64,000 nt of DNA from a virus (IMGVR_UViG_3300037067_007506:4865-68864), one strand, 5' to 3'. Counted from the stretch's first letter, positions 26,657-54,287 are shown. Translations and numbers: made by a program. Notes: generated from the sequence alone by a model not told the origin.

Positions 26657-27814
26657 ATGATTAAAAAATTAATTGTTGAAAAAATATATGGAAGACAAGC
26701 CGTTGTTTATCACCGGACGAAGTCCGAAGATATTGCAAAAGGAATTTTAAAGACAGGTTTTAAAATTGGAACAGGAGATACGTACGGAGCTGGAGTTTAT
26801 ACTACATATGATTTAAACAGTCAGTTGAATGAAAAAATGGTTCATGCTTATGGTAATATAATCATAAAATTTGCAGTTTACATTCAAGATTTTTTAATCT
26901 TCGATTATGAAATATCACGTCAACTTTATGGAAAAAATTATAGTTTGGTTGATCAATTAAAAAAGAAGAATATTAAAATAACAGATGAAAAAATAGAAAG
27001 TTATTCAAAACAATTAGAAACTAAAAAATTTACATCAAATATAGCTTTAAATTTTTATGAAAATTTTAAAATAATTTTAAATAAGTTCAAAGGTTTAATA
27101 TTCACAGGCCGCCGGGATGGCGCTGTGTTGGTGAGTTATGATCCAAACATATTAATACCATTGTCGTTCTGTGAAACAGACACGACTGGAAGAAATATTA
27201 TAAAACCTTGGGAGAAAATTTTAAACAAAGAAACATTGAAAAGATATGTGACAGGTAGAAAAAATGTTCAGAATAAAATATTAAGTCCGTTAGAAAAACT
27301 AAAACAAATGTATGATGATATTTATTTTGATATGGGTAATGGTAATTTTAAAGTTAAAAAAGATGGTAAATTTGGTTTATATGATAAAAATTTTAAATTA
27401 GTTATTCCTGTTGAATATGATTATATAGATTTTTATAATAGTAATGGTAATTTTAAAGTTAAAAAAGATGGTAAATTTGGAATATTAGATAAAAATTTTA
27501 AACTAGTTATTCCCGTTGAATATGATTTTATAGATTTTTATAATGGTAATTTTAAAGTTCAAAAAAATAATAAATTTGGTTTATATGATAAAAATTTTAA
27601 ATTAGTTATTCCGGTTAAATACGATTTTATAGATTTTTATAATGGTAATTTTAGAGTTGAATTAAATAATAAATTTGGTTTATATGATAAAAATTTTAAA
27701 TTAGTTATTCCCGTTGAATATGATTATATAGATTTTTATAATGGTAATTTTAAAGTTGAAAAAGATGGTAAAGTTATATTGTTAGATAAAATTACATTGA
27801 AGGAAATTAAATAA
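26657..27814 (+). CDS. tagged PARP-like ADP-ribosyltransferase with four WG-type repeats (ART-1)
   Basis: MIKKLIVE tag; VVYHRT..I...GF..G..YGAGVY (His/Tyr ART motifs); C-terminal KFGxxDKNFKLVIPVEYD repeats. Confidence 0.75.
   Translation: MIKKLIVEKIYGRQAVVYHRTKSEDIAKGILKTGFKIGTGDTYGAGVYTTYDLNSQLNEKMVHAYGNIIIKFAVYIQDFLIFDYEISRQLYGKNYSLVDQLKKKNIKITDEKIESYSKQLETKKFTSNIALNFYENFKIILNKFKGLIFTGRRDGAVLVSYDPNILIPLSFCETDTTGRNIIKPWEKILNKETLKRYVTGRKNVQNKILSPLEKLKQMYDDIYFDMGNGNFKVKKDGKFGLYDKNFKLVIPVEYDYIDFYNSNGNFKVKKDGKFGILDKNFKLVIPVEYDFIDFYNGNFKVQKNNKFGLYDKNFKLVIPVKYDFIDFYNGNFRVELNNKFGLYDKNFKLVIPVEYDYIDFYNGNFKVEKDGKVILLDKITLKEIK
27347..27811 (+). repeat. WG-type coding tandem repeats, 99-105 bp units
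   Basis: Four full units plus a capping unit. Confidence 0.9.
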
Positions 27815-27822
27815 GTTTTTAA

Positions 27823-27834
27823 TTTTATATTTAT
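27823..27834 (+). promoter_or_regulatory. putative late promoter motif
   Basis: TTTTATATTTAT upstream of the protease. Confidence 0.7.
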
Positions 27835-27862
27835 AATATAAATTACGATTGGAGATTTTTCT

Positions 27863-29038
27863 ATGGAAAAAAATGTTTTGCAATATATAAAAGAACAGAG
27901 ATTAAATGAAACAGAAGCACAATATGGAAAAGTATTAAGTTATATATCAGAATCTAAAATTATTGTAGAAGAAAATACTAATGGTAATGGAGCAATATTA
28001 GGTAGAATTAAAGCTATTCTAATGGAACTAAATACTAAATCACAAAATGGAACATATTATGATGATGCTTGGTATGAAAAATCTATAGAAAATAATCAAT
28101 CTTTTCAAAGACGTTTAGCTAAGAAACTTATTTTAGGTCATTTAGATCATCCAGATAAAGCAGCAACTTCAGGATCTTTAACAGCATTTGCAGTTGTTAA
28201 AATTTGGAGAGAAGGTAATATTGTTTGGGGTGTATTAGAAATATTTAATACTAAGAATGGTAATGGTCAAGATTTATGGACATTAATAAATGCAGGTGTG
28301 GTAATAGGTTTTTCATTAAGAGGTTTAGGAACAGATTATTATGAAAACGGATGTACTAAAATAGTTGGCGATGGATTTGATTTGAAAGGTTGGGATGCAG
28401 TAGTTGATGCAAGTTTTATAAATGCTGAATTTAAAGAATTTACAGAACAAAGAAAACAAAAAATGATATTAGAACTTGAATCAAAAGTAAATGCAAAAAT
28501 GTCCGCAACCAGGTTAATATTGGAGACAATTAAAATGAATAAAGAAAAAGAAAGTAAATCTAACATTGATAGATTTGAAAATACTCAATTGAAAGATTTA
28601 ACTGAAAAACAAAAGAAAGTTATTACAGTATTAGAAGAAAAAAATAAAACTGAATCAACTTTAAAAAATAAAGTATTAGAAGAAAAAAATAGTTTAATAA
28701 CTGAAAATTTAAAATTAAGTGATAGAATTAAACAAATTGAATCAACTCAAAATAACTATAAGTTAACAATGGAATCTAAAGATAAAACTATTGTACAATT
28801 AAATAGTAAATTAAATGAAGTTGAAAATACTAAAAAATTAATTGAAGAACAAGTAAAAGAAAAAGAACTTTTAATTTCTAAATATTTAGAAGATATTGAA
28901 AACCTAAAAAAAGTTGTAAATGATAACAAAATTAACATTTCAATTAATAAATTAAGAACAGAAGATAAAAAAGAAAATAAAGTTAGACCTATAATTGGGT
29001 CATATAAATATAAAATTGTTGATCCACTAGACAAATAA
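27863..29038 (+). CDS. prohead protease (gp21-like) fused to a coiled-coil scaffold-like tail
   Basis: N.T.Y, LGHLDHP, GFSLRGLG and WDAVVDASF motifs; long coiled-coil C-terminus. Confidence 0.9.
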   Translation: MEKNVLQYIKEQRLNETEAQYGKVLSYISESKIIVEENTNGNGAILGRIKAILMELNTKSQNGTYYDDAWYEKSIENNQSFQRRLAKKLILGHLDHPDKAATSGSLTAFAVVKIWREGNIVWGVLEIFNTKNGNGQDLWTLINAGVVIGFSLRGLGTDYYENGCTKIVGDGFDLKGWDAVVDASFINAEFKEFTEQRKQKMILELESKVNAKMSATRLILETIKMNKEKESKSNIDRFENTQLKDLTEKQKKVITVLEEKNKTESTLKNKVLEEKNSLITENLKLSDRIKQIESTQNNYKLTMESKDKTIVQLNSKLNEVENTKKLIEEQVKEKELLISKYLEDIENLKKVVNDNKINISINKLRTEDKKENKVRPIIGSYKYKIVDPLDK

Positions 29039-29046
29039 TTTTCTAA

Positions 29047-29058
29047 TTTTATATTTAT
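29047..29058 (+). promoter_or_regulatory. putative late promoter motif
   Basis: TTTTATATTTAT about 320 bp upstream of the capsid gene. Confidence 0.65.
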
Positions 29059-29081
29059 TAAAACGGAAACTTATAAAGAAA

Positions 29082-29224
29082 TATTCAACACTTTTGGTAT
29101 TTTAATTTTTGTAAAGAATACGTTTAAAAACATACATAGAAACTTTAAAAATTCTATTCAACACTTTTGGTAGATAACAAAAATTTTTAAAATTTCAAAA
29201 AACCAGTATATCAACACTTTTGTA
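29082..29224 (+). repeat. TATTCAACACTTTTGGTA direct repeats in the capsid leader
   Basis: Perfect 18-mers at 29082 and 29155; degenerate copy at 29211. Confidence 0.85.
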
Positions 29225-29377
29225 TACAACAAATACTGATTAAGTTATTAAAGTAACACTTTTATTTAATGATTGAATCACATATGAAACAGATTAACTA
29301 GTCTGTTAGACTAATTTTACAATTTTGTTAAATTCAATATTTAACATACATTAGTGCATATGCACGGAGATTTTATT

Positions 29378-30877
29378 ATGGCTAATTTATATAATGAAGG
29401 TCAAGTTTATAATGCCCTTCAAAACAATATCAAAACTTATGGTTCAAGATACAGTGTGTATTTAGAATCGGCACGATCAAGCAACAAAGATATGGATATT
29501 CACAAAGAACATAATTTAGTTATGGCTCTTAAAACGTTTGAAGATGTTATGACAAACGGTTATAACAAAAACGGTGATGGTATTATGGCTTTTAGAAAAG
29601 AAGATGTACAAAAGTTCATTGACCAAAAATATATTAGAGAAGATGCTACAAGACCTGCAGATTTCGATTCTTTTATTCATTATGGTTTTGATGTAATTAC
29701 TTCTATGTTAACATCTAATCCAGTTGAAGAATTTATGACAATTCAATCAATTGATAAACAAATGGGTGAAATTTATTACATGGATTTCATCAAGTCTTCT
29801 AACAAAGGTTCACATGTAAAAGGTTCTTCATATATGTCAGCTAATAGTGGACCACATACTGGAGAAGATTATTCAAGTGAAAAAATTCCTTTGGAAGAAT
29901 GTTATAATGCAGATGGTTCAACTTTAGCATTTTCAGGTAAAAAATTAAATTGGTTACCTTTAAAAGCATCTAATGTTACTATTACATTCGTAATTGGTGG
30001 AACAACTTATTCAGTAACTGATAATGGTGCAGGACATTTCATTCATGCTAGAATTGCAAGTTCAACTTTAAATTATGTTGATGGTCAATTAGATGTTACT
30101 TTCACACAAGCTGTAGATAGTGCTACAAAAGTATTTGCAACTTATGTACAAGATTCAGCACGAGAAGATGTAAACCAAAACCCACAAATCACTGTTAAAT
30201 TAACAACCAAATACATTTATGCTTTAAGACGATATTTGTTAACAACTTGGATGATTGATTCAGCTTTGATCTTAGACAAACATTATGGTAAAAAACTTGA
30301 TGAAGAATTGTTAGAAAAAACCTTAAACGGTGTAAACAACGAAATTGCTATTCAATGTGCTAACAAAATTCACGCAGATGCAACAGCAAACAATTCTACA
30401 GCAGTTACTTTTACAGATGCAACTAATGTATATTACCCGCAAGTTTTTGGACGACAAGACAGTTTGATTAAAGTATTAGATGGTGCTGTTGAAATTGAAG
30501 CAGCTACTCAAAAAGTTACAGCTAATTTTATTATTGCTGGTAAAAAAATGAGTAAGATTTGTAGAACCTTACCACGTGATATTTTTAGTCCTGTTAAATA
30601 TGCAGACAAAACACCAACCGGAATGCGTGTGGTTGGCGTGATAGACGAACAGTATAAGGTAATACAGAATACTGAAGGTTATGCTGATAGTCAATTCTTA
30701 ATTGGAGCAAAAGGTCCAGATTGGATGACAACAGGAGCAGTATTAGCAGTATTTATTCCTTTAATGTCAACACCAATGCAGATTCATCCAAGTGGAGAAA
30801 TGACTCGGGGATTATTAACATATAATGGTGTAGAAACTGTTAATTCCGACTTTTATTGTAAAGGAACTATTGCATAA
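29378..30877 (+). CDS. major capsid protein (gp23-like)
   Basis: Follows the protease; E..TIQ.I....G.IYY; AVF.PL..TP..........RGL.T; high-expression codon bias; GGAG RBS favours ATG 29378; probable maturation site YIRE/DAT. Confidence 0.9.
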   Translation: MANLYNEGQVYNALQNNIKTYGSRYSVYLESARSSNKDMDIHKEHNLVMALKTFEDVMTNGYNKNGDGIMAFRKEDVQKFIDQKYIREDATRPADFDSFIHYGFDVITSMLTSNPVEEFMTIQSIDKQMGEIYYMDFIKSSNKGSHVKGSSYMSANSGPHTGEDYSSEKIPLEECYNADGSTLAFSGKKLNWLPLKASNVTITFVIGGTTYSVTDNGAGHFIHARIASSTLNYVDGQLDVTFTQAVDSATKVFATYVQDSAREDVNQNPQITVKLTTKYIYALRRYLLTTWMIDSALILDKHYGKKLDEELLEKTLNGVNNEIAIQCANKIHADATANNSTAVTFTDATNVYYPQVFGRQDSLIKVLDGAVEIEAATQKVTANFIIAGKKMSKICRTLPRDIFSPVKYADKTPTGMRVVGVIDEQYKVIQNTEGYADSQFLIGAKGPDWMTTGAVLAVFIPLMSTPMQIHPSGEMTRGLLTYNGVETVNSDFYCKGTIA

Positions 30878-30901
30878 TAGATCAATCAAATTTTTAAATA
30901 T

Positions 30902-30928
30902 GGCCTACTATTTTTAGTAGGCTTTTTT
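30902..30928 (+). terminator. rho-independent terminator
   Basis: GGCCTACTA-TTTT-TAGTAGGCT plus T tract. Confidence 0.85.
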
Positions 30929-31020
30929 ATTGATCAAATTATTGTAAATAATATTTAAGTTTTTAAACTTTACTATAATAATATTTTAAATACATATATA
31001 ATAAAAGAAGGATATAAATA

Positions 31021-32328
31021 GTGATTAAATGCCTAATTTGTAATAGAGAATTCAAAGATAAAGTTTGTTTAAGTCAACATATAAGTAGAAATCATAAAGA
31101 ATCAACTTCACAAGAATATTATGATAAATATTTAAATACTGAAGATTTAAAATGTCCTCATTGTGATAATAAAAGAAAATTTATTCGTTTTGTTACAGGT
31201 TATAGAGAAACATGTTGTTCAAAAGAATGTCATCAAAAACAAAAAGATAGTAATTTTTTAAAGAAATATGGTGTTAAAAATCCTAATCAATTACAAGAAG
31301 TTAAAAATAAAAAAGCAAAAAAATGTTTAGAAACTTATGGAGTTGATAATAATTTTAAAAGTAAAGAAATACAAGAAATATCTAAACATACCAAAAAAGA
31401 AAACTATGGTGACGAAAATTATAATAATCCTTTAAAAAGAAAAGAAACATGCTTAGAAAAATATAATGTTATTAATCCTGGATGTTTAGAAAGCACTAAA
31501 ATTAAAAGAAATGCAACAAGATTAGAACGATATGGTGATGAACATTATGTAAATGATAATCTAGCTAAACATACCAAAAAAGAACGATATGGCGATGAAA
31601 ATTATAATAATAGACCTGAAGCTATAAAAACTAGTCAAAAATTATATAATACAGATTATCCAAGTCAATCGAATGTTATTAAAATAAAGAAAATAAATAC
31701 TAGTTTATTACATTATAATGTGATTCATCCTTGGAAATCTTCAATAATAAAAGAACAAATTAAAAGAACAAATTTAAAAAATATTGGAGTTGAAAATTAT
31801 TCACAATCAAAAGAATTCAAGAATTTGTGGAAAGATAAAGGGTTTATTTTTTCTGTTATGTTAAAAAGATATGAGTCTCAAAAGAAAAATGGAACATTTA
31901 ATACTTCAAAACCTGAAGCTATTTTATATAATTTATTGTGTGAATTATTTAATAATAACAATGTTGAAAAACAATATCATTCTGAACAGTATCCATTTAA
32001 TTGTGATTTTTATATTAAAAGTTTAGATTTATACATAGAATATAATGGTTCATGGACACATGGATTTAAACCTTTTGATATATTTAAAGTTGAACATATT
32101 AATAGAATAAAGGAAATGGTATTAAAAAGTAACGAATTAAATTTTAAAAATAAACCTAAACAATATTATACAAATGCAATAAAAGTTTGGACTGAATCAG
32201 ATGTTAAGAAACGTGAAACAGCTAAACAAAACAATTTAAATTATATCGAAATATTTAATAACAATTGTTTTATTAATTTAAATAATATATTAGATACTTA
32301 TAAAGGTGGTTATTTGTGTTTGATTTAA
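31021..32328 (+). mobile_element. free-standing homing endonuclease (C2H2 finger, YGxxN repeats, Vsr-like PD-(D/E)XK domain)
   Basis: KCLICNREF..L..H...H; repeated YGVKNP/YGDENYNN; CDFYI...LYIEYNGSWTHG. Confidence 0.8.
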
Positions 32329-33098
32329 CTCCAATAGAAAAATATAATGATTTATATTTTAAACGTGATGATTTATTTAAATATAATAATGTTTGTGGTG
32401 GAAAAACTAGATCAGCTTTAGTTTTATGTGAAAACGAAAAAGTAGGTTTTGTTACTGCTGGAAGTAGAGAAAGTCCTCAAATACAAATTATATCTGAAAT
32501 AGCTAAAAATATGAAGTTACCATTTATAGCACATTGTCCTGGTGGAATGTTAACAAATGAATTATTATATGCAAAAGAAAATGGTGCGGAAATAGTTCAA
32601 CATAAAATGGGTTTTAATAATAATATAATTAAAAAAGCTAAAGATGATGCTATTAGAACAGGTTATAAATATATACCTTTTGGAATGGAATGTTTACAAG
32701 CTATTCAACAAAATGAATTTCAAGTACAAAATATTCCCCTTAATATCAAAAGAATATTTATAACTGTTGGTTCAGGAATGTCTTTATTAGGTGTATATGA
32801 AGGAATAAAAAAATATAATTTAAATTGTAAAATTATTGGTTTAGTTGTTGGTGCTGATCCATCAAAAAGAATAAATAAATGGATTAGAAATGAATTATGG
32901 GATTTTTCAGATTATCACAAAAGAATAGAATTAGTTAATTTAGATATTGATTATCACACAAAAATAAAAGATAATGTTTTTTGTGATATAATATTAGATG
33001 AAGTTTATGAAGCAAAATGTATTTCATACTTAAAAGAAAACATGAAAAAAGATGATTTATTTTGGATTATAGGAAAAGGTATTAGAAATGATAATTGA
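32316..33098 (+). CDS. PLP-dependent enzyme, ACC deaminase/D-cysteine desulfhydrase-like (fold type II)
   Basis: LTPIE...LYFKRDD...GGKTR (PLP lysine), VGSGMS, LDEVYEAK. Confidence 0.8.
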   Translation: MFDLTPIEKYNDLYFKRDDLFKYNNVCGGKTRSALVLCENEKVGFVTAGSRESPQIQIISEIAKNMKLPFIAHCPGGMLTNELLYAKENGAEIVQHKMGFNNNIIKKAKDDAIRTGYKYIPFGMECLQAIQQNEFQVQNIPLNIKRIFITVGSGMSLLGVYEGIKKYNLNCKIIGLVVGADPSKRINKWIRNELWDFSDYHKRIELVNLDIDYHTKIKDNVFCDIILDEVYEAKCISYLKENMKKDDLFWIIGKGIRNDN

Positions 33099-34434
33099 TA
33101 ATATTGAATTTAATATAACTGAAGTAAAATTACCTATTTCAAAATTTAAAGGTAGTAAACATTGTTATTTAGGGTTTGATGTTTCTTTTTTCAAAAATAG
33201 ATATAGAGATTATGATATAAATATTCAAAATAAAAAAGATAATATAATAAAGTTTATACAAAATAATTATAAAGAAGTTATCATAGAAAATGATACTATT
33301 TATATAAAAGAAATAGATTTAACAATAGATATCAGATTAGATTATATCCACAATTTTAATGCTTATAATAAAAAAAATGTTTTTCATATTAATTGTCTAA
33401 ATGAATTAATATTAAATAACGAAATAGATATAATTAGAACTTGGTGTATAATAGATCCTGAAAGACGTAGTAATTTTATATATAAAAAATATTTAGAAGT
33501 ATTTAATTATAACGATAATAATGATTTAAAAACACAAATAAATAGGGTTTGTAATGGTATCTTTAGATGTTATAATGATGATGAATTAAAAAAAGAATTA
33601 AATCAAATTATTAAAAATCCAGGTAATTATAATTCATCTCCAAGCCATAATAAGATAGTAACCAATTTTAATAAACACATTTTTAAAAATGAAAATGAAT
33701 ATTATTTAGATTGTATAAAAAGACGTAGACATATTGAAAATTGTAGATTTTTACAATATAAAGAAGAATATGAATTAACAGATAATGATATTTTAATTAA
33801 TTTTAGATTTAATAAGTATGTTCAGTATTATAGTTATTTTTCAGTATTATGGGCTAAAGCTTTTTTAACAGAATACAAAAATGATATTAAATCAGTATTA
33901 GATATATTTGGTGGGTGGGGACATAGATATTTAGCTTTTTTAAAAACAGAGTATATTTATAATGATATTTGGAATTTAAGTTTTGATGGAGTTAAAAAAG
34001 TACATGAATTTTGTGAAAGAAATATACATAGTTTACCTAAAAAAACTTTTTTAAATGAAGATGCTAAAAATTACAATTTTAAGAATTTAAATTATGATTG
34101 TATTTTTACATGTCCTCCATATTTTAATGTTGAGGTTTATGATAACGGAGAATATAAAGATTGGAACAATTTTATGGAATTGTGGGATAAAAGCTTAGAA
34201 AATTCAATAACTGATAAGGTTAAAATATTTGCTTTTGTTATTAGAGATATATTTGCTGAAGATTTAAAAAAAAGTTTGATAAATTATAATTTTGTTTTTG
34301 AAAAAGAAATTAAATTAGGAAAAAATATAAAACATCATTATAATAGAGGTAAATCTAAAAATTCTAGTTCAGAAACATTATATATATATTTTAATAAAGA
34401 TTATAAAAAGAAAGAAGTTTTTAATTATTTTTAA
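33088..34434 (+). CDS. amino-DNA methyltransferase-like protein (N6A/N4C type)
   Basis: VLDIFGGWGHR (SAM binding) and FTCPPYFNVE.Y (catalytic PPY). Confidence 0.75.
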   Translation: MIIDNIEFNITEVKLPISKFKGSKHCYLGFDVSFFKNRYRDYDINIQNKKDNIIKFIQNNYKEVIIENDTIYIKEIDLTIDIRLDYIHNFNAYNKKNVFHINCLNELILNNEIDIIRTWCIIDPERRSNFIYKKYLEVFNYNDNNDLKTQINRVCNGIFRCYNDDELKKELNQIIKNPGNYNSSPSHNKIVTNFNKHIFKNENEYYLDCIKRRRHIENCRFLQYKEEYELTDNDILINFRFNKYVQYYSYFSVLWAKAFLTEYKNDIKSVLDIFGGWGHRYLAFLKTEYIYNDIWNLSFDGVKKVHEFCERNIHSLPKKTFLNEDAKNYNFKNLNYDCIFTCPPYFNVEVYDNGEYKDWNNFMELWDKSLENSITDKVKIFAFVIRDIFAEDLKKSLINYNFVFEKEIKLGKNIKHHYNRGKSKNSSSETLYIYFNKDYKKKEVFNYF

Positions 34435-34823
34435 ATTATATATTTATACTAGGAGCCTAGTATGAAATGTGATAAAGATAGAAATTGTTTTTATAAGTTA
34501 GGTGATAATTGTGGATATAAAAGAATGAGATGTCTGTTAGATTGTAATTTAGAAATGAATTGTTGTGATTGTGAAGAATTTTATATAAATTTTTATAGGA
34601 GTTGTAAATGAAAAAAATTATATTTCAAATATTAGATGTTAATAATAACATTATATTTGAAAATGAATCAATGGAATTAAGAGATAAAAGATACGATGAG
34701 TTAACACAAAGTAACTCAGCTATGAAATTAAAAAAAAGTCAAGTTAATTTTTATACGGAGTAGTTATGTTAATATGTTTTACTAAATTTAAAGTTGGATG
34801 GTATTTTATTTTTAAAGGGATAA

Positions 34824-36056
34824 ATGTATAAACAATTCAAAGTAAGATTGTATCCGAATAAAATTCAAGAAGAATTGATAAATAAAACAATAGGATGCTC
34901 TAGATTTATTTATAATATAATGTTATCTGAAAGAATGAATAATTATGAGTTATTTAAAAATGATAATATTAAAAGAAAAAATAAATCAGTGAAAGAATAT
35001 AAACAAGAATATGAATTTTTAAGTGAACCATCATTCGGAGCATTACATGAAACAAGCAGACATTTAGATACAGCTTATATGAATTTTTTTAGAAATTTAA
35101 AGAAAGGTAAAGTTGGATTTCCAAAATTTAAATCTAAGAAAAGAAATAAATTATCTTATACTGAACAAAATTGTATATATCCTAAATATAACTCAATAGA
35201 AATAAAAGATAATTATTTAAAAATGTTAAAAGTTGGTCGGTTAAAATTTAGAGGGTTATCAAGTTCTTTCAATGGTATAATAAAATTTGTAACTGTAGAA
35301 AAAACTAAAACAAATAAATATTATGCTTCTATTTTAGTAGAAAAAGAATTAGATGTTAAACTTAGAAAATATAATTGTGTTATAGGTTTAGATTTAGGTT
35401 TAAAAGAATTTATTGTAACATCAAATAATGAATATTATAAAGGTATAAAAGATAAACTTTATGATATAGAGAAAAGAATTAAACATATAAGTAAAATACA
35501 TTGTAGAAAACAAAAAGGAAGTAAAAGAAAAGAAAAAATAAGATTACGTTTAGCGAAATTATATGAATACAAAACAAACGTAATCAATCATTTCCAATGG
35601 AATTTAGTTAATAAGTTATGTAGTGAAAATCAAACTATTGTAATTGAAGATTTAAATATTTCAGAAATGATTAAAAATAAACAATTAAGCCATTCAATTT
35701 ATTATTCAAATTGGGGTGGTTTTAGACAAAAATTAGAATCAAAATCTAAAGAATATTCAAGTGAAATATTTGTTGTTGATAAATATTTTCCAAGTTCAAA
35801 AACATGTTCGAAATGTGGTAATATAAATAAAGATTTAACATTATCCGATAGGATTTATGTTTGTGAATGTGGATTATCATTAGATAGAGATTATAATGCT
35901 AGTTTAAATTTAGAAAATTATTTTAATAATATATCGGATAAGTTGTCCGATTACAATCACAGAGAACAAATAAGACCAAAAAGAGTTATAGTTTATAATT
36001 TTTCAGGCAAGTTCAATGAAGTGATTATCTATCCAATAGGAGAAAAGACTTGTTAA
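34824..36056 (+). mobile_element. tnpB: TnpB-2, canonical IS605 OrfB type, no tnpA adjacent
   Basis: KVRLYPN..Q HTH; GLDLG (D), VIEDL (E), CSKC..C.C zinc finger, DRDYNAS (D). Confidence 0.92.
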
Positions 36057-36286: not shown

Positions 36287-36482
36287 CATTTAATAATTTA
36301 AATTGATATTATACTATAATTATAAGGAGTAATAAATGAAAATAAGAGTATATAATTTTTATGTAGGTTTTTATTTTCAAAATGTTTCAACTACAAATGA
36401 AAGATATAATTATATTATCAATTTAGGTTATTTTATTATAGGAATTAAAAAATATGTTCTTTCAAAGTTAAGTTAATATAAA

Positions 36483-36767: not shown

Positions 36768-36789
36768 CCACTCATTGAGTGGCTTTTTT
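36768..36789 (+). terminator. rho-independent terminator
   Basis: CCACTC-ATT-GAGTGG followed by C and a T tract. Confidence 0.75.
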
Positions 36790-36790
36790 A

Positions 36791-36802
36791 TTTTATATTT
36801 AT
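36791..36802 (+). promoter_or_regulatory. putative late promoter motif
   Basis: TTTTATATTTAT. Confidence 0.7.
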
Positions 36803-42310: not shown

Positions 42311-43579
42311 TTGAAAACATTAAAATTTAAAATAAGGAAATTAAATAAACAAGATTTTAATAAATTAAAAGATTTTTGTCATTATTCAAATAATCTTTAC
42401 AATTATTCTTTATATATTTGTAGAAAATATTTTGAAGAAACCAATAAATATTTAGGATATGTTAATTTAGAAAAAGAAGTAAAGACTAATGAAAATTATA
42501 AATTATTACCTGTTCAAACTAGTCAACAAATTATTAGAATGATAGATAAAAATTTTAGATCATTTTTTGCATTAATAAATAAAAAGAAAAAAGGTCAACA
42601 TTCAGATAATATTCACAAACCTAATTTTAAGAAAAAAGGTGTTATGAATAATTTAATATTTACATTCCAAAATTCTTTTATAAAAGAAGGATATATTCAA
42701 TTATGTTCAAGTAAAGAATATAATAAAAAATTAAATGTTAAACAAGGTCATGGTAATATTAAATTACCTTTCACATATAAGATTGATGGTAATTTTAAAC
42801 AATTAATTATTAAACCTATAAATAATGGACAATATTTTAATTGTTATTTACAATATGAAGAAAACAAAATTATAAAGGAGGAAAAAGATCAAAATAATTA
42901 TTTATCAATTGATACTGGAATAAATAATTTATGTTCTTGCTTTAACAGTTCTACTGGTCAAGCTTTCATTATTAATGGTAAAGCTTTGAAAAGTTATAAT
43001 TCATTTTATAACAAAAAATTAAGTGAATATAAATCTATTTTAAAAAAAGTAAATAATAAAAATTGGTCAAAAAAATTAGAAAGAATAAATCAAAAAAGGT
43101 ATTGGTATATAGATAATTATTTTAACCAAGTAGTTAATTATATTATAAAATATTGTACTAAAAATAATATTAATAAAATAATAATTGGTTATAATGAGAC
43201 TTGGAAAACTAAATGTAATATCGGTAAAATAAACAATAGAAATTTTTATAATATACCTTATAGTATTTTAAAACAAAAATTAGAAAACAAGTGTAATGGT
43301 TCTAATTTTATATTTATAGTACATGAAGAAAGTTTTACTTCTAAATGTGATGCTTTAGCATTAGAAGAAATAAAGCAACATGATGAATATTTAGGTACTA
43401 GAGTTCATAGAGGATTATATCAAAGTTCCGTAGGAAAAATGATAAACGCTGACGTGAATGGTGCAATAAATATCATGAGAAAAGCAAAAGTACTTAACGA
43501 TGAGTTGATAAAACTCCAGTTAATAAAGGGTTTAATCTTTAACCCTGTTAAAATTAATTTTAACAAAACTGCAAAGTAA
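42311..43579 (+). mobile_element. tnpB: TnpB-3, rearranged RuvC-II type, no tnpA adjacent
   Basis: SIDTGINN, IIIGYNETWK, EESFTSKC, INADVNGAINI. Confidence 0.9.
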
Positions 43580-45556: not shown

Positions 45557-45563
45557 GGTATTT

Positions 45564-45872: not shown

Positions 45873-46462
45873 TAACAAAATTATTTAAAGAAGAAAAGTT
45901 TTTATTTTATGAATTATCGTTTTTAGAACAAGAAGAATTATATAATGAATTTAAAAATTCTTATTTAAAAGCTACAGGAACAGCTTGGGATAAAAATAAA
46001 TTTGACCTTAAAGCTATGACTTGGACGTTTTATGGAAGCAAACAAGGTGGAGTAGCTGTAAGAGTTCAGAATTCAGGGTTAATAAAATTAAATGCTTCAT
46101 TTGGACCAATAAGAGAAATATATAAAGGATTTAATGAATTATTACAAAAAGATGGAAATAAACCTATTTGGGGTGGTATGAGTTTTGAATTGTTAAATAT
46201 GGTTAAAAGATTTGGGTTTATAACTCCTCCAGTATTATTGTTAAAGTTTTTATTACCTAATATTAAAAAAACATTTGGTGATGAAATACAGTCTGTAAAT
46301 AGTGATGGTTCTTTTAATCTAAATTATGATGGAAAAATAATTAAAAAGTATTTTATAGCTAATAAAGCCTATTATAAATGGTTATTAAAAGTAGGTTTAC
46401 AACAGGTTGGAATAAAAATACCTGAAGTTATTTTAAAAATAATTAATGGAATAATTAAATGA
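45869..46462 (+). CDS. tagged putative internal-head protein
   Basis: MITKLFKE/E. Confidence 0.65.
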   Translation: MITKLFKEEKFLFYELSFLEQEELYNEFKNSYLKATGTAWDKNKFDLKAMTWTFYGSKQGGVAVRVQNSGLIKLNASFGPIREIYKGFNELLQKDGNKPIWGGMSFELLNMVKRFGFITPPVLLLKFLLPNIKKTFGDEIQSVNSDGSFNLNYDGKIIKKYFIANKAYYKWLLKVGLQQVGIKIPEVILKIINGIIK

Positions 46463-47718: not shown

Positions 47719-48156
47719 ATGGAAACCCTTGATATTATAGCTAAAAACATATTAGAAAATATTGATATGTTATTAGCAGTATTACCTTATTCATCAACAA
47801 TAGAATTAATAAGAGTGACAAAAACAGGACAATTTGGATATGAAATACCTTCAGTTGAAGAGCCTTTTAGAACAGAGGGGGTAATATTACATAAAACTGA
47901 AAGACGGTTTTTTAAAAAATTAGGTATATATGATGAAGGTGATTTACCTATAATAGGTATATTCAAAAATCAAGATAATTTTAAAAGAGAAGATATAATA
48001 TCAGAAATTACAAAAGATTTTGTAAATGGACAAGAAGTTGAATATAAAACTCAATATAGAATAACTGATGAAAGAACTTATGGAGATAAACGAACTTTTA
48101 AAAGAGTATTCTTTTTATCACCAGTTAGAGAAGAAATAACATTAAAAGGTAATTAA
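47719..48156 (+). CDS. putative head-closure/neck protein
   Basis: 145 aa, beta-rich; lies in the neck interval. Confidence 0.35.
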   Translation: METLDIIAKNILENIDMLLAVLPYSSTIELIRVTKTGQFGYEIPSVEEPFRTEGVILHKTERRFFKKLGIYDEGDLPIIGIFKNQDNFKREDIISEITKDFVNGQEVEYKTQYRITDERTYGDKRTFKRVFFLSPVREEITLKGN

Positions 48157-48756
48157 ATGATTAAAAAATTATTTATTGAAAAAATATATGGAAGACAAGC
48201 AGTTGTTTACCATAGAACTAAAACTGAAGATATAGTGAAAGGTATTTTAAAGCAAGGTTTTAAACTAAATAATAATTCTATTTATAGAAGTGGTATTTAT
48301 ACTTGTTATGAATTAAAAAGTCAATTAAATTCAGAAATGGTTAAAAATTATGGAAGTATTATAATTAAATTTGCCATTAATGTTTCAAATTTTCTAATAT
48401 TAGATTATGATGAAGCTAAAGTTGTATATGGAAGTAAGTATTTATTGACAGATCAACTTAAAAATAAAGGGTTGGAAGTAAACTCTGAGTTATCATTTTT
48501 ATCCGATGATTTAAAAGATAATCCTTTTACATCAACCGGGGCATATTACTTTTATGGAACGTATAAACAACATTTAAATAAATTCAAAGGTATAATTTTC
48601 ACAAGTCCTAATGATGGTAAAGTTTTAGTTTCATTTGATCCAAACATATTAATACCATTGTCATTCTGTGAAACAGACACGACTGGAAGAAATATCATTA
48701 AACCTTGGGAGAAAATTTTAAATAAAGAAACATTGAAAAGATATTCATTGAGGTAA
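48157..48756 (+). CDS. tagged PARP-like ADP-ribosyltransferase domain without repeats (ART-3)
   Basis: MIKKLFIE; VVYHRT...GF.....IYRSGIY; ends just after the shared PWEKILNKETLKRY. Confidence 0.7.
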   Translation: MIKKLFIEKIYGRQAVVYHRTKTEDIVKGILKQGFKLNNNSIYRSGIYTCYELKSQLNSEMVKNYGSIIIKFAINVSNFLILDYDEAKVVYGSKYLLTDQLKNKGLEVNSELSFLSDDLKDNPFTSTGAYYFYGTYKQHLNKFKGIIFTSPNDGKVLVSFDPNILIPLSFCETDTTGRNIIKPWEKILNKETLKRYSLR

Positions 48757-48761
48757 ATAAT

Positions 48762-49058
48762 ATGGTGATGATAAATTATAAACTATATGATATTAATTCA
48801 ATAGTTCAAGCATCAATTAGATCAGATATAGATAGAATAATAACAATAATAAGTCATTATAATAAAGAAATATATTATAGAAATGATAAGTTTTATACAG
48901 AATTTATATTTCGTGGATTTAAATTTTTAAAAGAAAATACAATATATATTGATAGAATATTTAGACAAACAACTAAAGCATTAAGATTAGGTAAAACAAT
49001 TGATGGTGATTTAATAGTTGTTATTGAAAAATTTCCATTAATATTTATGAATAGGTGA
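48762..49058 (+). CDS. hypothetical protein
   Basis: ORF in an operon. Confidence 0.55.
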   Translation: MVMINYKLYDINSIVQASIRSDIDRIITIISHYNKEIYYRNDKFYTEFIFRGFKFLKENTIYIDRIFRQTTKALRLGKTIDGDLIVVIEKFPLIFMNR

Positions 49059-49059
49059 T

Positions 49060-49641
49060 ATGGAAATATACATAAATGTAATTGATGAAAAATTTAGATC
49101 AACTTCAAAATGGAAAGAAATAAATAATATATTTAATAATCAATCACCAACATGGAACCCGGGTATAAAATTACCATTAAAAACAAATCCAGAAATGTTT
49201 GAATTATTCGTACTGTATATAGCTTTATTGTATAGAGAATATCTAATTAATGTTGTGAAAAATACTAGAGGGTACGAAAAATTTTGGATACCTTTATCTC
49301 CAAAATATTTAGCACAAAAAAAGAAAGATGGAAGATTTGAAAATATTTGGATGAACACCGGTACATTAATAAATTCAATATCAATATCTTATAATGATCA
49401 GCGTAAACAAGTTAGAGTAGGTATAGACGAATATAAAGTTTATAAGTTGCCGGGTAGAAAAGGTAAACGTGGACCAAAGAAAACATTACCTATTATTTTG
49501 GTGGCGAAATGGATGGAGTTCGGAACGGAGAAAATGCCAAGTCGACCTTTATTTAGAAGAGTTCGCGATTACATATCGAAGAATATCAAACGCTACGAGA
49601 AAGATTTCATAGATTTAATGAAACTTATGAAAACAAGTTAG
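49060..49641 (+). CDS. HK97 gp10-like neck/tail-completion protein
   Basis: W.PLS..Y...K, TGTL.NSI and A.WMEFGTEKMPSRPLF motifs. Confidence 0.6.
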   Translation: MEIYINVIDEKFRSTSKWKEINNIFNNQSPTWNPGIKLPLKTNPEMFELFVLYIALLYREYLINVVKNTRGYEKFWIPLSPKYLAQKKKDGRFENIWMNTGTLINSISISYNDQRKQVRVGIDEYKVYKLPGRKGKRGPKKTLPIILVAKWMEFGTEKMPSRPLFRRVRDYISKNIKRYEKDFIDLMKLMKTS

Positions 49642-49644
49642 TAA

Positions 49645-49656
49645 TTTTATATTTAT
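49645..49656 (+). promoter_or_regulatory. putative late promoter motif
   Basis: TTTTATATTTAT upstream of sheath. Confidence 0.7.
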
Positions 49657-49675
49657 AGTATAAAAGGAGAGAATA

Positions 49676-51487
49676 ATGCCAAATATAAATCCAGGAGTTT
49701 ATGCTTCTATAGAAGATAATTCAGATATATTAGTATTGAACAATTCATTAATAATGGGTATTGTTGGAGAATTTGAAAAAGGTCCAGATGATAAACCTAT
49801 GTTAATAAATTCTAAAACATTTAATCAATATTTTGGTAATATTGAAAATGCCCCAAATAAACAATCATATATTTCTGTAATAGAAGTTTTGAAAAAGTCA
49901 CAAGGTATACAATTAATAAATGTTTCTAACACATCTAAGTATGCTGGAGCCGTAGTAACATCTTCAGCAGTCACAGCTTTTTCAACAGGTGTTACTACAA
50001 AAGATTCTTTTAATTTTAATCCAGTTATAACTGATGAAGTATTAGGGTCGGGTGATGGATCAACTGCTAATTTTTCAGGAACATTAGTAAAATATCCAGT
50101 TAATTCGGTAACAAATATTAAGTATACAATAGGTTCACAATTATATACAGCAACTATATCAGCTTTAGGTGTTATTACAGGAACTCATATTACTTCAGGT
50201 TCTGTCAATTTATCAACAGGTGTTTGGAATATAATTTTTGATACACCTGTTGATAATAGTCAAAATATGACAATAACTTATTCTTGGATATCAGATTATC
50301 TATTTACTGTTATAGCTAGATCAAAAAAGTCTTGGGGTAATAATATAGGTATTAAAATAGTAGCTTCTAATTCTACAGATAAAACATTCCAAATAGCAGT
50401 ATATGAAAAACAAGCTGACAATACAGATAAATTATTAAAAACACATGAAGTAAGTAGAAATCAGTTTTATAAAACTGGTAGAGGTAAAAATATATTTATT
50501 GATACCATATTTACTAATGAAAGTTATGTATTATATGCAATTAATAATCCAGCTATTGTTTCAACAACTATTCCAGCAATTACAGCTAATATAGTATATT
50601 GTGCTGGAGGTGATGACGGAATAACAGTAACAAGTTCAGAATATTCTACAGCTATTAAAACTTTTGAAGCAACAGATATTAAGTTTGATTATTTTGTTGG
50701 TGCAGGAATTACAGAAAAAACATTAATTGATGATATTGCTGGAGTTTGTGATAAAAGAAATAAAACAGCATTCATAGATGCTATTGATGGTGATACAGCT
50801 ACAATCGTTACTTGGGTTAATAACACTTTAAATTTAGATAATATGAAAGTTTCTTGTTATTTACCAACTCAATATGTGAGTTATAACGGAAATGAGTATT
50901 TGTGCCCAGCATCAGCTTTAGCAGCAAGACAAAAAGGTGCTAGATTTTTAGGAGAGGGTGAGCCATTTATGCCTGGTGCAGGTATAGGTGAAAATAGAGG
51001 ATCTCTAAGTACTATCAGACAATCTAGGGTTTATGATGATATAACGGACATACCTTTATTAAATGCAGTAGGTTTAAATCCTATACATTATATTGAAGAT
51101 GTTGGTAATGTAATATTTAGTGAGTTTACTTTACAACGAAGAGAATCCTTCACATCATATCAACATACTGTACAAACTGTATTAAAAATGTTAGTTGATA
51201 TTCCAAAAGCATTAAGAGTTTTAGTATTTGAACAAATTGATAATGCTTTATTTTCACAAATAGAAGCAATTTGTGTTAGTTATGCTACACAATTATTATC
51301 ATTTAAAGGAACAATTGATACTGATATAAGTAAATTTAAGGTTGATTTTTCTGATAACGATGATATAACAAAAGATAATCAACAAGTATTTGTTAATATT
51401 ATTTTTGTACCAGCAGGATTAACACAAGAAATTAGATTAAGAATAACATATACTAGTAATCAATTATTTAGTGAATTAGTAGGTTAA
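49676..51487 (+). CDS. tail sheath protein
   Basis: PGVY..IED, GIVGEFEKGP, A.S...WGNNI.I, AGGDDG, PAS..AA, L...GLNPI. Confidence 0.92.
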   Translation: MPNINPGVYASIEDNSDILVLNNSLIMGIVGEFEKGPDDKPMLINSKTFNQYFGNIENAPNKQSYISVIEVLKKSQGIQLINVSNTSKYAGAVVTSSAVTAFSTGVTTKDSFNFNPVITDEVLGSGDGSTANFSGTLVKYPVNSVTNIKYTIGSQLYTATISALGVITGTHITSGSVNLSTGVWNIIFDTPVDNSQNMTITYSWISDYLFTVIARSKKSWGNNIGIKIVASNSTDKTFQIAVYEKQADNTDKLLKTHEVSRNQFYKTGRGKNIFIDTIFTNESYVLYAINNPAIVSTTIPAITANIVYCAGGDDGITVTSSEYSTAIKTFEATDIKFDYFVGAGITEKTLIDDIAGVCDKRNKTAFIDAIDGDTATIVTWVNNTLNLDNMKVSCYLPTQYVSYNGNEYLCPASALAARQKGARFLGEGEPFMPGAGIGENRGSLSTIRQSRVYDDITDIPLLNAVGLNPIHYIEDVGNVIFSEFTLQRRESFTSYQHTVQTVLKMLVDIPKALRVLVFEQIDNALFSQIEAICVSYATQLLSFKGTIDTDISKFKVDFSDNDDITKDNQQVFVNIIFVPAGLTQEIRLRITYTSNQLFSELVG

Positions 51488-51498
51488 GGGAGAAAACA

Positions 51499-52026
51499 AT
51501 GGACGAATATAATAAATTAAAAGCAACTGGAATGATGCAAACCAATTTCATGTGGCTTGTAGATATTCCATATATACCATATGTTGGAGCAAATAATTTT
51601 AAAATATTAGCTCGTATGACATCAGTTCCACAAATTAGAGTTAATCAATCTATTGTAAGAATTTTAGATGATCAATATAGTTTACCCGCAGGTAAACAGC
51701 ATGATGCAATATGGAATGTAGAAATGTTTGTTGAAGAGGGTCATAAACTTTTTGATCAAATGATATTATGGAATTATTATAGAAAACTTTATTCAACAGG
51801 AAGTATGATAAATACTGTTAAAGTTGACGTTCCAATTGGATTTAAAGCTTTAAATAATAAAGTAATTTCAAAAAGAATGAAATTAATTGGAGTAATGCCA
51901 TTAGGATATCCAGAAATACAAGGATTAGATCAAAATTCAGCAGAAGGAATTCTTAGAGTTAATCAGCAATTTTCATTTGATGATATAGATGAAGACCCTT
52001 TCAATTTATTAACTTTTTCAATTTAA
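51499..52026 (+). CDS. tail tube protein
   Basis: Follows sheath; 175 aa; gp19-like pattern (P...N..W.V; L.GV.P...). Confidence 0.75.
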   Translation: MDEYNKLKATGMMQTNFMWLVDIPYIPYVGANNFKILARMTSVPQIRVNQSIVRILDDQYSLPAGKQHDAIWNVEMFVEEGHKLFDQMILWNYYRKLYSTGSMINTVKVDVPIGFKALNNKVISKRMKLIGVMPLGYPEIQGLDQNSAEGILRVNQQFSFDDIDEDPFNLLTFSI

Positions 52027-52030
52027 ACAT

Positions 52031-52054
52031 AAGCCACTACCAAGTGGCTTTTTT
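52031..52054 (+). terminator. rho-independent terminator
   Basis: AAGCCACT-ACCA-AGTGGCTT plus T tract. Confidence 0.85.
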
Positions 52055-52113
52055 ATTGTAATAACATTGTAAATAATTTTTTACATTATATTTATATAAA
52101 AGTAGGAGAAAAT

Positions 52114-53079
52114 ATGGGTAGTTTTAAAGTAAGTGAAGATAAAATAAAAAATGTATCTGAATATTTCGTTAAATTTGGTTTAGAAAAAACAGCACAAGAT
52201 TTTAATTTAAAACCTGCAAGTGTGTTAAGATATGTTAGTTCAGCTAAATCAGATTTAGGTATTAATATTGAAAAAAATAAAATATTATCAAAACTAGCTG
52301 AAAAATTTTCAGATGAGGAATTAAAAAGTATACTTAAAGGTTCAATTTTAACTCCAGAAATGAATACATCTGTTTTAAATTTTGATGGAGAAATATTTAC
52401 ATTTGGATATATAACTGATACTCATGCTGGTAGCAAGTTTTTTAAAAAACATTATTTAACTTCATTTTTTGAAGAGTGTGAAAAACAAAATGTTGAATGT
52501 GTATTTCACACTGGTGATTTATCGGAAGGAATGAGCCATAGACCTGGACACATATATGAATTAACTCATATTGGATTTGATGCACAAAAAGAATACATTA
52601 TAGAATTATTTAAAGATTTTAAAAGAAAATTATACATAATTGATGGTAATCATGATAGATGGTATATTAAATCAAATGGTGCTCTAATAGTAAAAGATAT
52701 AGCTAAGAATTTTCCAAATTGGGAATTTCTTGGTCACGATGATGCAACAGTTATTGTCAATGGTATTAAAGTAGAATTATTTCATGGGGAAGATGCAAGC
52801 AGTTATGCAACAAGTTATAGAGTTCAAAAATTAATTGAAGCTATGCCTGGAGGGGAAAAACCAAATATTTTATTGTGTGGTCATACTCATAAGCAAGTAT
52901 ATATGATTGATAGAAATATACATGCTATTTCCGGAGGGGCTTTATCCTGGCAATCAAATTGGATGAGATCCAAAAAAATAGTTTGTCATTCAGGATTTTG
53001 GATTGTAAAATGTTGCATTTCAAAGGGTGAAGTTAAATGGTTGGAACCTAGATGGTATCCTATTTATAATAAGGATTGA
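52114..53079 (+). CDS. calcineurin-like metallophosphoesterase with an N-terminal helical domain
   Basis: ITDTH, HTGD, GNHD, FHG and GHTH motifs. Confidence 0.85.
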   Translation: MGSFKVSEDKIKNVSEYFVKFGLEKTAQDFNLKPASVLRYVSSAKSDLGINIEKNKILSKLAEKFSDEELKSILKGSILTPEMNTSVLNFDGEIFTFGYITDTHAGSKFFKKHYLTSFFEECEKQNVECVFHTGDLSEGMSHRPGHIYELTHIGFDAQKEYIIELFKDFKRKLYIIDGNHDRWYIKSNGALIVKDIAKNFPNWEFLGHDDATVIVNGIKVELFHGEDASSYATSYRVQKLIEAMPGGEKPNILLCGHTHKQVYMIDRNIHAISGGALSWQSNWMRSKKIVCHSGFWIVKCCISKGEVKWLEPRWYPIYNKD

Positions 53080-53081
53080 AG

Positions 53082-53314
53082 ATGATTAAAAAATTGTTTT
53101 TATAAGAATCATTAATAATATAATTGATTTAGAAATATGTCCACTATGTGGTCAAGAAGCTGTAATGAGATGTAGGATTAGTAATAGACATTGTATAAAT
53201 CATCATAGTTGGTTTGTGAAAGACAATCAATATTATATTGGGGATGGACATGATATTCCAGGTATACCTTTAGATGAATATTTAAGGATAAAAAATGATA
53301 ACAAAATTATTTAA
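53082..53314 (+). pseudogene. degenerate tagged gene (MIKKLFL-stop, with an out-of-frame Cys/His-rich domain)
   Basis: Tag-like start terminated at TAA 53103; the -1 frame encodes CPLCGQEAVMRCRISNRHCINHHSW up to TAA 53314. Confidence 0.4.
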
Positions 53315-54287
53315 AGAAGAAAATAGTATGAATGAAATTGAAAAAATAAGAAAAAGTATTAGGCCTCATATTATAGCTATTGATTTCGACGACACAATTG
53401 CCTATAATAGTTTCCCAGATATTTTAAAAGCGACCTTAAAAGATGGTGCTAAAGAAGTAATTAATAAGTTATATGAAAAAGGATATTATATAATCATTTG
53501 GACATGTAGATATTTAGAAAATCATGTTAATGATTGTATTAATTTTTTAAATAATAATGGAATAAAGTTTCATATAGTTAATGAAAATTATCCAAGTCTA
53601 CCATTTAAACCGACTCGTAAAATATATTACGATATTCTTATAGATGATAAATGTATGTTAGACGTTGATTGGAATAAAATAGAACAATTTATTAATGAAA
53701 AAATTAAAAATGATATTAATTATCACACTTTAATTACAAAAGAAATGATAGATTGGTTTGTTATTAGAACAAATACTCATATTAATTTAGTACAAAAATA
53801 TTGTCAAAAAATATCTGATAAATATTTAAAATATAATAAATTTATAGGTATTGAAAGTAGAGGTAATCAACATGATTCTAATAAATGGTTAGAACCTGAA
53901 GTATTACCTTATATTATTGTTTCTTGGAATTATCATTGTAAAGATATTGGTAAAGAATTTTATATAAATACTGAATTAAAAGAAAAAATGGATAAAGCTT
54001 CTGAACATCATGTTTTAAATAATTCACATCATCCAGAATCATGGAGTACAAAAATAAATTCTGAAATAATTAATAAAGATGATAGAGATGGAATTCCTAG
54101 TGAAATAATAGATGCTGAAAAAATGGATGAATTAGGTATAGCTGAAATGTGTGCTGATTGGTGTGCTATGAGTGAAGAAAGAAATAATACACCAAAAGAA
54201 TGGGCTGATAAAACTGTTAATAAAAGATGGAAATTCACAGATAAACAAGTAACATTAATATATGATATTTTAAATAACATATGGTGA
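53295..54287 (+). CDS. tagged HAD-family phosphatase fused to an HD-domain (DUF5662-like) phosphohydrolase
   Basis: MITKLFKE/E; IAIDFDDTI, IIWTCR, ILIDDK; then HD.NK, HH...N.HHPE.W, EM.ADWCAMS. Confidence 0.75.
   Translation: MITKLFKEENSMNEIEKIRKSIRPHIIAIDFDDTIAYNSFPDILKATLKDGAKEVINKLYEKGYYIIIWTCRYLENHVNDCINFLNNNGIKFHIVNENYPSLPFKPTRKIYYDILIDDKCMLDVDWNKIEQFINEKIKNDINYHTLITKEMIDWFVIRTNTHINLVQKYCQKISDKYLKYNKFIGIESRGNQHDSNKWLEPEVLPYIIVSWNYHCKDIGKEFYINTELKEKMDKASEHHVLNNSHHPESWSTKINSEIINKDDRDGIPSEIIDAEKMDELGIAEMCADWCAMSEERNNTPKEWADKTVNKRWKFTDKQVTLIYDILNNIW

Follow-up and report, generated by a model that had tools for sequence, protein, structure and literature searches.

An eight-residue N-terminal tag shared by eleven proteins of an uncultured distant relative of T4: a candidate capsid-targeting propeptide

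Known head-targeting leaders and the shared tag

It is known that the capsid-targeting sequences (CTS) borne by T4's internal proteins IPI, IPII and IPIII, as well as the propeptides of Alt, gp24, gp67 and gp68, are removed by the protease gp21 (Mullaney & Black 1996; PMC3012670, PMC9026906, PMC5694885), whose site of action is the assembled prohead (PMC5694885, PMC9026906). The targeting of IPIII depends mainly on residues 4 and 7, and its processing, on residues 8 and 10 (PMC9026906). In T-even phages, the internal proteins are diverse, the conserved CTS being their only common part (PMC3012670), and the CTS, which delivers foreign proteins, is a possible route by which T4-like phages could recruit varied proteins (PMC9026906). 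Here we consider a 64,000-nucleotide stretch of viral DNA, hereinafter the window (bases 4865–68864 of the 68,864-base contig IMGVR_UViG_3300037067_007506), in which eleven proteins open with a shared tag of eight residues, with the consensus M-I-K-K-L-(I/V/F)-x-E.

Two other systems are close enough to be compared. In phages phiKZ, 201phi2-1 and SPN3US, ejection and inner-body proteins lose their N-terminal propeptides to a relative of the gp21 protease, which cleaves at S/A/G-x-E (PMC5694885, PMC7411985). The likeness to the window would lie in the processing of many head-internal proteins after Glu by a distant relative of gp21, and the phiKZ-type propeptides presumably also target proteins to the prohead. 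However, these propeptides mostly exceed 100 residues, have no single shared short tag, and at P3 (the third residue before the cut, the last one being P1) carry a small residue rather than a hydrophobic one. The second system is the DarB protein of phage P1 with its N-terminal 30-residue capsid-targeting signal, which by itself suffices for a large enzyme, as well as a reporter, to be loaded into the head for delivery (PMC9024508). This signal is described for one protein, its removal by a head protease is not reported in the available part of the source (PMC9024508), and the head genes of P1 are unrelated to those of the window.

In our view, the tag is likely to be a capsid-targeting propeptide of the T4 type, which loads enzymes into the head and is cut off after Glu8. 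In the proposed sequence of events, the tagged proteins would be made late, and the tag would dock them onto the scaffolding core, probably onto the coiled-coil tail of a protease–scaffold fusion protein. The capsid shell would then close around the tagged proteins, and a serine protease of the gp21 type would cut after Glu8 (P3 = I/V/F, P1 = E), freeing the mature enzymes in the head. At the next infection the enzymes would exit with the DNA and start acting ahead of all phage gene expression. This payload would include three PARP-like ADP-ribosyltransferases (ARTs), along with one GNAT acetyltransferase, one P-loop NTPase, and one protein of the HAD family. The capsid-targeting explanation, initially offered by a sequence-only reading of the window, fits every comparative test run (protease family, motif layout, synteny, clade specificity, and gene fission); from these comparisons we infer docking, cleavage, packaging, and ejection into the cell.

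The window comes from an uncultured distant relative of T4 and is very rich in AT (20–27% G+C). The contig is linear (IMG/VR class), with no terminal repeat found on it, and, as it is about 30% complete (CheckV), the eleven tags are a lower bound. The regular expression [IFLV][KT][KR]L[IVFL].E yielded 11 matches in the six-frame translation of the whole contig, all of them on the plus strand directly after the start methionine and none internal; by an estimate from rough amino-acid frequencies, approximately 0.005 N-terminal matches would be expected by chance among the ~95 open reading frames (ORFs). The sequence-only reading, which had proposed such a scan, was also accurate as to the eleven N-termini, all of them present in the ORF listing, and as to a decayed copy at 53082. 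Position 8 (P1) is Glu in all eleven tags. Position 6 (P3) is Ile in four, Val in three, and Phe in four tags, thus varying among hydrophobic residues only, via first-base changes, while position 7 is free.

In the all-against-all BLASTP comparison of residues from 9 to the end, real similarity was confined to the three ART paralogues (63–73% identity). Hence the earlier statement that similarity ends after Glu8 in all other tagged proteins holds, apart from one weak pair, 48157/53295 (here and below genes are denoted by their start positions), with E 5e-4 in the 11-sequence database. The tag is absent from the replication, homing-endonuclease, TnpB, portal, capsid, neck, sheath, tube, and baseplate genes of the window, and the gene listing in this respect confirms what had been said of the replication, tail, and homing-endonuclease genes. 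Structural genes interleaved with the tagged ones, e.g. head-completion-like 47719, neck 49060, sheath and tube, are untagged as well. We also observed an early-region ORF of 118 residues (5836–6192) that opens with MIKWIKE, a tag-like sequence one residue shorter and ending in I-K-E; it could be either a chance match or a twelfth, divergent tag.

If the conservation resided in the nucleic acid, the tag would serve for translation initiation or as a recombination boundary at which gene cassettes are swapped, and the encoded peptide would have no function. Efficient initiation regions do typically have such A-rich start codons, the remnant at 53082, which consists of the tag only, shows weak colinearity with the beginning of gene 37601, and 21 identical bases upstream of genes 26657 and 48157 show that recombination or duplication occurs at such sites. 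However, the conserved stretch of the tagged genes opens with the ATG itself and goes no further than codon 8, the upstream DNA is not conserved except for these two recent duplicates, and ~85 other ORFs of the contig start without the tag sequence. The hydrophobic-only variation of position 6 and the freedom of position 7 are also at odds with this alternative, as are the relatives described below, which retain the tag chemistry with other codons, replacing K by R (AAA to AGA) and L by I (MIRRLVNE, MIKRIVTE). Since the K/R and L/I swaps proceed via different codons, they argue for selection on the peptide, and we regard a purely nucleic-acid element as very improbable.

For the comparison with T4, the leaders were taken from AF158101. 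Those of IPII and IPIII (MKTYQEFIAE), Alt (MELITELFDE), and gp24 (MAKINELLRE) follow the pattern h-x-x-h-h-x-E (h, hydrophobic), which is the layout of the tag, I2-x-x-L5-(I/V/F)6-x-E8; moreover, the spacing of I2 and L5 in the tag and their place with respect to P3 repeat those of Y4 and F7 in MKTYQEFIAE. The further T4 leaders are MLKEQLIAE (gp22), MNEPQLLIE (gp21), MEGLIE (gp67), and MLLIPE (gp68). Similarly to the CTS, the tag is short, resides at the extreme N-terminus of unrelated proteins, and ends with hydrophobic-x-Glu. A protease of the gp21 family, a gp20 portal, and a gp23 capsid protein co-occur with it, and there is ART cargo, as in the case of T4 Alt.

Vice versa, several features set the tag apart. 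It has eight residues compared with 10–19 in T4, and Lys-Lys at positions 3–4 where T4 has Gln-Glu. One near-identical tag is present on eleven proteins here, whereas in T4 an identical leader is shared by IPII and IPIII only; the cargo consists mostly of recognizable enzymes, whereas the T4 internal proteins are small and basic; and the protease, unlike that of T4, is fused to a scaffold-like tail. An alignment of the tag with the T4 CTS by layout gives only two identities in eight residues (I and E), and the charges in the centre are opposite; for a peptide of eight residues, homology to the T4 CTS is undecidable by sequence, either way. The T-even sets of internal proteins provide one more parallel, as there, too, a conserved leader stands on fast-changing unrelated bodies, and the window shows signs of cassette turnover, namely the tag-only remnant at 53082 and the ART duplicates. 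The tagged genes, however, are spread over the head/neck/tail block and encode larger multidomain enzymes, whereas the T-even genes form a separate set of small genes.

Given this background, the earlier claim of novelty, made for the tag sequence and the breadth of cargo, was too strong, as a conserved CTS on diverse proteins has already been published (PMC3012670, PMC9026906). The suggested use as a protein-delivery tool is no new idea either, as the T4 CTS (PMC9026906) and the P1 DarB signal (PMC9024508) are already employed for that. The window thus represents a known principle in a broader form. The novelty lies in the eight-residue consensus, in the lineage, in how numerous and how enzymatic the cargo is, in the evidence from gene fission, and in a large leader-bearing ART family.

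Head protease, relatives, and specificity of the tag

Tagged gene 26657 is situated between the portal and protease genes, in the same place as the genes of the core proteins gp67 and gp68 in T4 and a tagged gene in one of the relatives (L004). The product of the protease gene, 27863, comprises a protease at residues ~45–200 and a coiled-coil scaffold-like C-terminal tail. His96 and Ser151 of the protease are invariant in ten clade members. In its N-terminal segment, Glu36 is nearly invariant within the motif hydrophobic-hydrophobic-x-E, which in the window is IIVE, of the same form as L-I-V-E of the tag. The T4 counterpart, gp21, bears LIE-9 (PMC9026906), to which IIVE-36 is the clade parallel. 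We presume that the 27863 protease is both the enzyme removing the tag and its docking partner.

By the word-seeded search, only nine of 5.8 billion proteins are homologues of this protease, and a search for relatives in IMG/VR by the portal only found none. The nine loci of the clade come from the contigs of the protease homologues and from two collection scans. The strict tag was observed on other cargo in five of these nine loci, which represent a rare AT-rich clade, often beside the protease; the strict regular expression yielded six tags, all six after Met and none internal. L004 has MITKLFLE between the portal and the protease and MIKRIVTE twice just after the protease, the latter position being also occupied by MIRRLVNE in L005 and MIRRIEE in L087. 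MIRKLKIE is located ~5.5 kb upstream of the portal gene in L001; in L003, whose portal gene is presumed, MIKRIYIRE lies ~7 kb upstream of that gene. Finally, near the head genes of L002 there are MITKIYHE (an ankyrin protein), MIKKYYFKE, and MLYVIE-type variants. The portal gene of L002 (2958–6413) encodes 1,151 residues with a precomputed Pfam intein splicing domain and an HNH endonuclease, and by sequence it looks like a portal with an intein inside.

In 158 other T4-like loci (1.63 Mb), no tag was found at any ATG followed by at least 40 codons. In the translated frames of at least 60 codons from 156 such loci (3.27 million residues), there were 0 matches after Met and 148 internal ones. 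The tag is clade-specific. A blind search for ORF pairs sharing six of the eight N-terminal residues detected the control pairs, T4 IPII/IPIII and alt/alt.-1, and gave 11 pairs in the window and none in the loci L005–L166, mostly from other T4-like phages; these loci cover only ~10 kb on each side of the protease, and hence the result applies to that region and does not show rarity of the tag elsewhere in those genomes. A degenerate DNA pattern of the tag, searched over IMG/VR, was uninformative, producing single chance-like matches per contig among the matches listed.

The tag might also be a leader for docking to, or recognition by, some other shared partner, such as an attachment site on the neck, tail or baseplate, a chaperone dedicated to the tagged proteins, or a leader-reading modifying enzyme. 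In line with that, tagged genes occur among neck and tail genes, too, and the product of 39562 matches phrog_1722 ('tail protein') and weakly resembles proteins of Maribacter phages and the 'tail stability' protein gp25 of P1. However, gp25 is without an established structural role (PMC9024508), and ART, GNAT and NTPase proteins are unlikely as external parts of the virion. This alternative also leaves aside that the tag ends in a gp21-type motif, present as well in the conserved N-terminal segment of the protease, and that the tagged genes of the relatives directly adjoin the protease. As for a modifying enzyme, no leader-reading radical-SAM enzyme was found on the contig. Thus we consider a partner other than the head core to be unlikely.

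Cargo and the family of PARP-like ADP-ribosyltransferases

The cargo comprises 11 proteins from about nine families, encoded within roughly 30% of the genome (Table 1). The functional labels proposed by the sequence-only reading were partly retained. The ART fold is supported by a structural model, GNAT, by a Pfam match, and HAD, by a match accompanied by DUF5662. The 'AAA+' protein 44417 has a Walker A motif only and is a P-loop NTPase, and the SWIM label of 39562 comes down to a loose CxC...CxH region. The product of 43815 has no homologue among 5.8 billion proteins. By the isoelectric point, the mature tagged proteins are mostly basic, which is uninformative because the whole AT-rich proteome is generally basic, too.

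The AlphaFold model of 48157, built with 56 homologues, is of high confidence, with the predicted local distance difference test score (pLDDT) of 92.6, with residues 1–6 disordered and the first long strand at 14–21; with the three paralogues alone, the model was unusable (pLDDT 47). The best Foldseek matches of the model are PARP4, PARP1, and PARP2 (E 6e-4 and weaker, template modelling score ~0.38), and others include AcrIF11 and a pre-ejectosome protein of cyanophage A4. With VIA-align, the Z scores were moderate (6.3–7.3), and all 50 of the 50 rows listed have the ART fold (Rhs ART toxins, PARPs, Scabin, MbcT, NatT); the Atlas neighbours are ART-PolyVal, PARP, and AcrIF11. The model thus supports the assignment of the 26657, 46459, and 48157 domains to the PARP-like ART fold. 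Across the 56 family members His19 and Tyr48 are invariant; no Glu was found to be invariant, and nearly invariant Asp153 is a candidate third catalytic residue.

By sequence, the domain matched no ART family of Pfam at E <= 0.01, no PDB sequence at E <= 1, and none of 50,697 GenBank phage records, T4 included, at E <= 1e-3 (tblastn). Hence there is no sequence relationship between the window ART and T4 Alt at this threshold, the feature they share being a tagged ART. The exhaustive HMMER search, in turn, returned 695 homologues (cluster representatives from metagenomes). We analysed the leaders in those 145 homologues that scored best among the carriers of the YHRT-type motif. Of these, 131 have E in line with Glu8, 129 have L/I/F/V/M at P3, and in 140 a leader of 3–48 residues precedes the ART domain. 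There are T4-like leaders among them, MKSFKEYISE and MKRFKEYLTE, and the homologue P0150 opens with MIKLIDILKE. A 60-kb metagenomic contig (L282, 8619–16204) encodes four ART paralogues, each opening MIKQLILEEVYG (window-like MIKQLILE).

In 11 of the 149 best ART homologues, the domain of 45869 is fused to the ART domain under a single leader. In the window the 45869 domain and the ART are encoded by adjacent genes, each with its own tag. Separate tags on the split domains therefore match the prediction of a per-polypeptide address. The 45869-type domain (~190 residues, motif IYNxFKxSYExxxGxSW) may be fused on either side of the ART, in proteins of up to 1,523 residues (P0035, P0049, P0087, P0117, P0139, P0094, P0098), which suggests that the two domains form a functional pair. 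A homologue of the 44417 NTPase from the 642-kb uncultured phage LR756502.1 opens with MKIKKYQAFYE, and hence the same cargo family bears that phage's own leader. Four adjacent T4-CTS-like leaders are observed there (L284, 2603–5097): MSRIRKYKEFITE, MKIKKYQAFYE, MKHLKRFSELNE, and, at an internal start, MRIRRFNE.

Polyvalent proteins of phages and conjugative elements were reportedly the subject of a study by Iyer et al. in 2017. Their effector domains, ARTs included, are thought to travel with the DNA. The relatives of the window ART fused to further domains, up to 1,523 residues in total, are similar to such proteins, whereas the domains of the window are found on separate polypeptides, every one with a short tag of its own, and there is no giant fusion.

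Several observations weigh against the capsid-targeting explanation. There is no tagged gene beside the protease on the 5.5-kb contig of the closest relative (L280). P3 is Phe or Val in seven of the eleven tags, compared with L/I in the T4 consensus. In the capsid protein, P3 of the Glu aligned with the T4 cleavage site Glu65 is S/T/N/A in the clade, not a hydrophobic residue, and therefore the capsid protein is uninformative as to the preference of the protease; a conserved Y-L-E-S ~30 residues into the capsid protein is an alternative candidate cleavage site. The codon choice in the tags follows the genome-wide codon use, whose bias is too strong for synonymous variation to weigh much. Finally, L-x-E is also kept where the ART domain is internal in the fused relatives, and therefore for the ART family it could be a part of the domain.

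The retention of L-x-E before internal ART domains would likewise fit a propeptide that is removable by the protease and serves for enzyme inactivation or as a cleavage mark, with no targeting and no need of packaging. Two more facts are in accord with such a role, as the ART domain begins within a few residues of the tag, and ARTs are frequently toxic. However, a disordered extension of eight residues is unlikely to inhibit the GNAT, P-loop, and HAD folds alike. Besides, T4 gp21 acts in the assembled prohead, so the substrate must be inside (PMC5694885, PMC9026906), and the conserved positions 2–5, upstream of P3–P1, correspond to the T4 targeting determinants (PMC9026906). Hence we deem a propeptide without the targeting role quite unlikely.

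Returning to capsid targeting, we would tentatively extend it, as a possibility open to doubt, to the whole lineage. This lineage, with the genome of perhaps ~230 kb, might load at least 11 pre-made proteins, probably several dozen in the whole genome, via an eight-residue per-polypeptide address, one kind of cargo being a PARP-like ART family with 695 metagenomic representatives, no match in the 50,697 GenBank phages, and a gp21-type (L/I)-x-E leader in about 90% of the 145 best YHRT-type homologues. If so, pre-made PARP-like ARTs would be injected in a widespread, undescribed phage strategy of take-over or counter-defence. If capsid targeting as such holds, a large uncharacterised metagenomic ART family would be linked to head packaging, and the tag would read out, from sequence alone, the proteins that an uncultured phage brings into the cell, yielding a candidate list of first-strike effectors without proteomics: the ART, acetyltransferase, NTPase, phosphatase, and several orphans. 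The T4 CTS principle would reach a lineage very far removed from T4 (protease identity ~30%), in which the cargo is more numerous and richer in enzymes, and the eight-residue tag would be the shortest such delivery address.

Genes and repeats around the tagged genes

Table 1. Coordinates of the tagged genes, head genes, and other features, counted from the first letter of the window
Feature	Position	Strand	Description
Portal, T4 gp20 type	24543..26639	+	Portal_T4 E 6.7e-23
Tagged gene 1, MIKKLIVE, 385 residues	26657..27814	+	PARP-like ART and C-terminal WG repeats (WG_beta_rep E 6e-28)
Head maturation protease, T4 gp21 type	27863..29038	+	Peptidase_S77 E 5.5e-15, above the curated cut-off; phrog_207
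Major capsid protein	29378..30877	+	Clade orthologues match Pfam Gp23
Tagged gene 2, MIKKLFTE, 101 residues	37601..37906	+	No domain recognised
Tagged gene 3, MIKKLVLE, 204 residues	37914..38528	+	No domain recognised
Tagged gene 4, MIKKLIVE, 346 residues	38525..39565	+	GNAT acetyltransferase, residues 56–150 (Acetyltransf_7 E 3.7e-11; phrog_1249)
Tagged gene 5, MIKKLVLE, 219 residues	39562..40221	+	Loose SWIM-like CxC...CxH region; phrog_1722
Tagged gene 6, MIKRLIKE, 200 residues	43815..44417	+	Orphan
Tagged gene 7, MFKKLVLE, 379 residues	44417..45556	+	P-loop NTPase; Walker A GSTGLGKS at residue 177; phrog_1250 E 4e-18
Tagged gene 8, MITKLFKE, 197 residues	45869..46462	+	'Domain X', ART-fused elsewhere
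Tagged gene 9, MIKKLIVE, 419 residues	46459..47718	+	PARP-like ART and WG repeats
Tagged gene 10, MIKKLFIE, 199 residues	48157..48756	+	PARP-like ART domain alone
Remnant, MIKKLFL-stop	53082..53105	+	Ribosome-binding site, ATG and seven tag codons (MIKKLFL), then TAA
Tagged gene 11, MITKLFKE, 330 residues	53295..54287	+	HAD-like phosphatase domain (phrog_1238 E 2e-33) and DUF5662 (E 1.4e-23)
TTTTATATTTAT, candidate late promoter	17203, 20682, 24500 (portal), 27823 (protease), 29047 (capsid gene), 36791 (36791..36802; tagged genes 2–5), 42266, 43306 (tagged genes 6–10), 49645 (sheath-to-53295 block), 54296	+	12-mer; gene or block that follows in brackets
IS605 OrfB/TnpB-type genes	3220-4431, 34824-36056, 42311-43579

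The other genes of the window encode a tail completion/Neck1-like protein, sheath, tube, baseplate hub, homing endonucleases, and TnpB. The capsid gene likely starts at the ATG at 29378 rather than at the GTG at 29354 (as listed, MHMHGDFIM...), because the clade orthologues align from the former (MANLYN...). Untagged gene 47719, located between two ART genes, has head-completion and collar proteins as its Atlas neighbours, and for this reason we rejected it as a candidate ART immunity protein.

The 12-mer TTTTATATTTAT occurs 11 times compared with 1.17 expected, usually with TWA directly before it, and is situated 20–60 bases upstream of late genes, among them those of the portal, protease, and sheath (Table 1). 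It is a candidate late promoter, and its location fits late co-expression of the tagged and structural genes.

Two of the three TnpB-type genes fall inside the late-gene block, between groups of tagged genes. Another repeat, AACACTTTT, has four copies in the window (29087–29263), all of them in the 340-base gap between the protease and capsid genes, and belongs to a longer repeat, (A)TTCAACACTTTTGGTA. These repeats might represent an array of regulator-binding sites, or else an RNA element, preceding the most highly expressed late gene.

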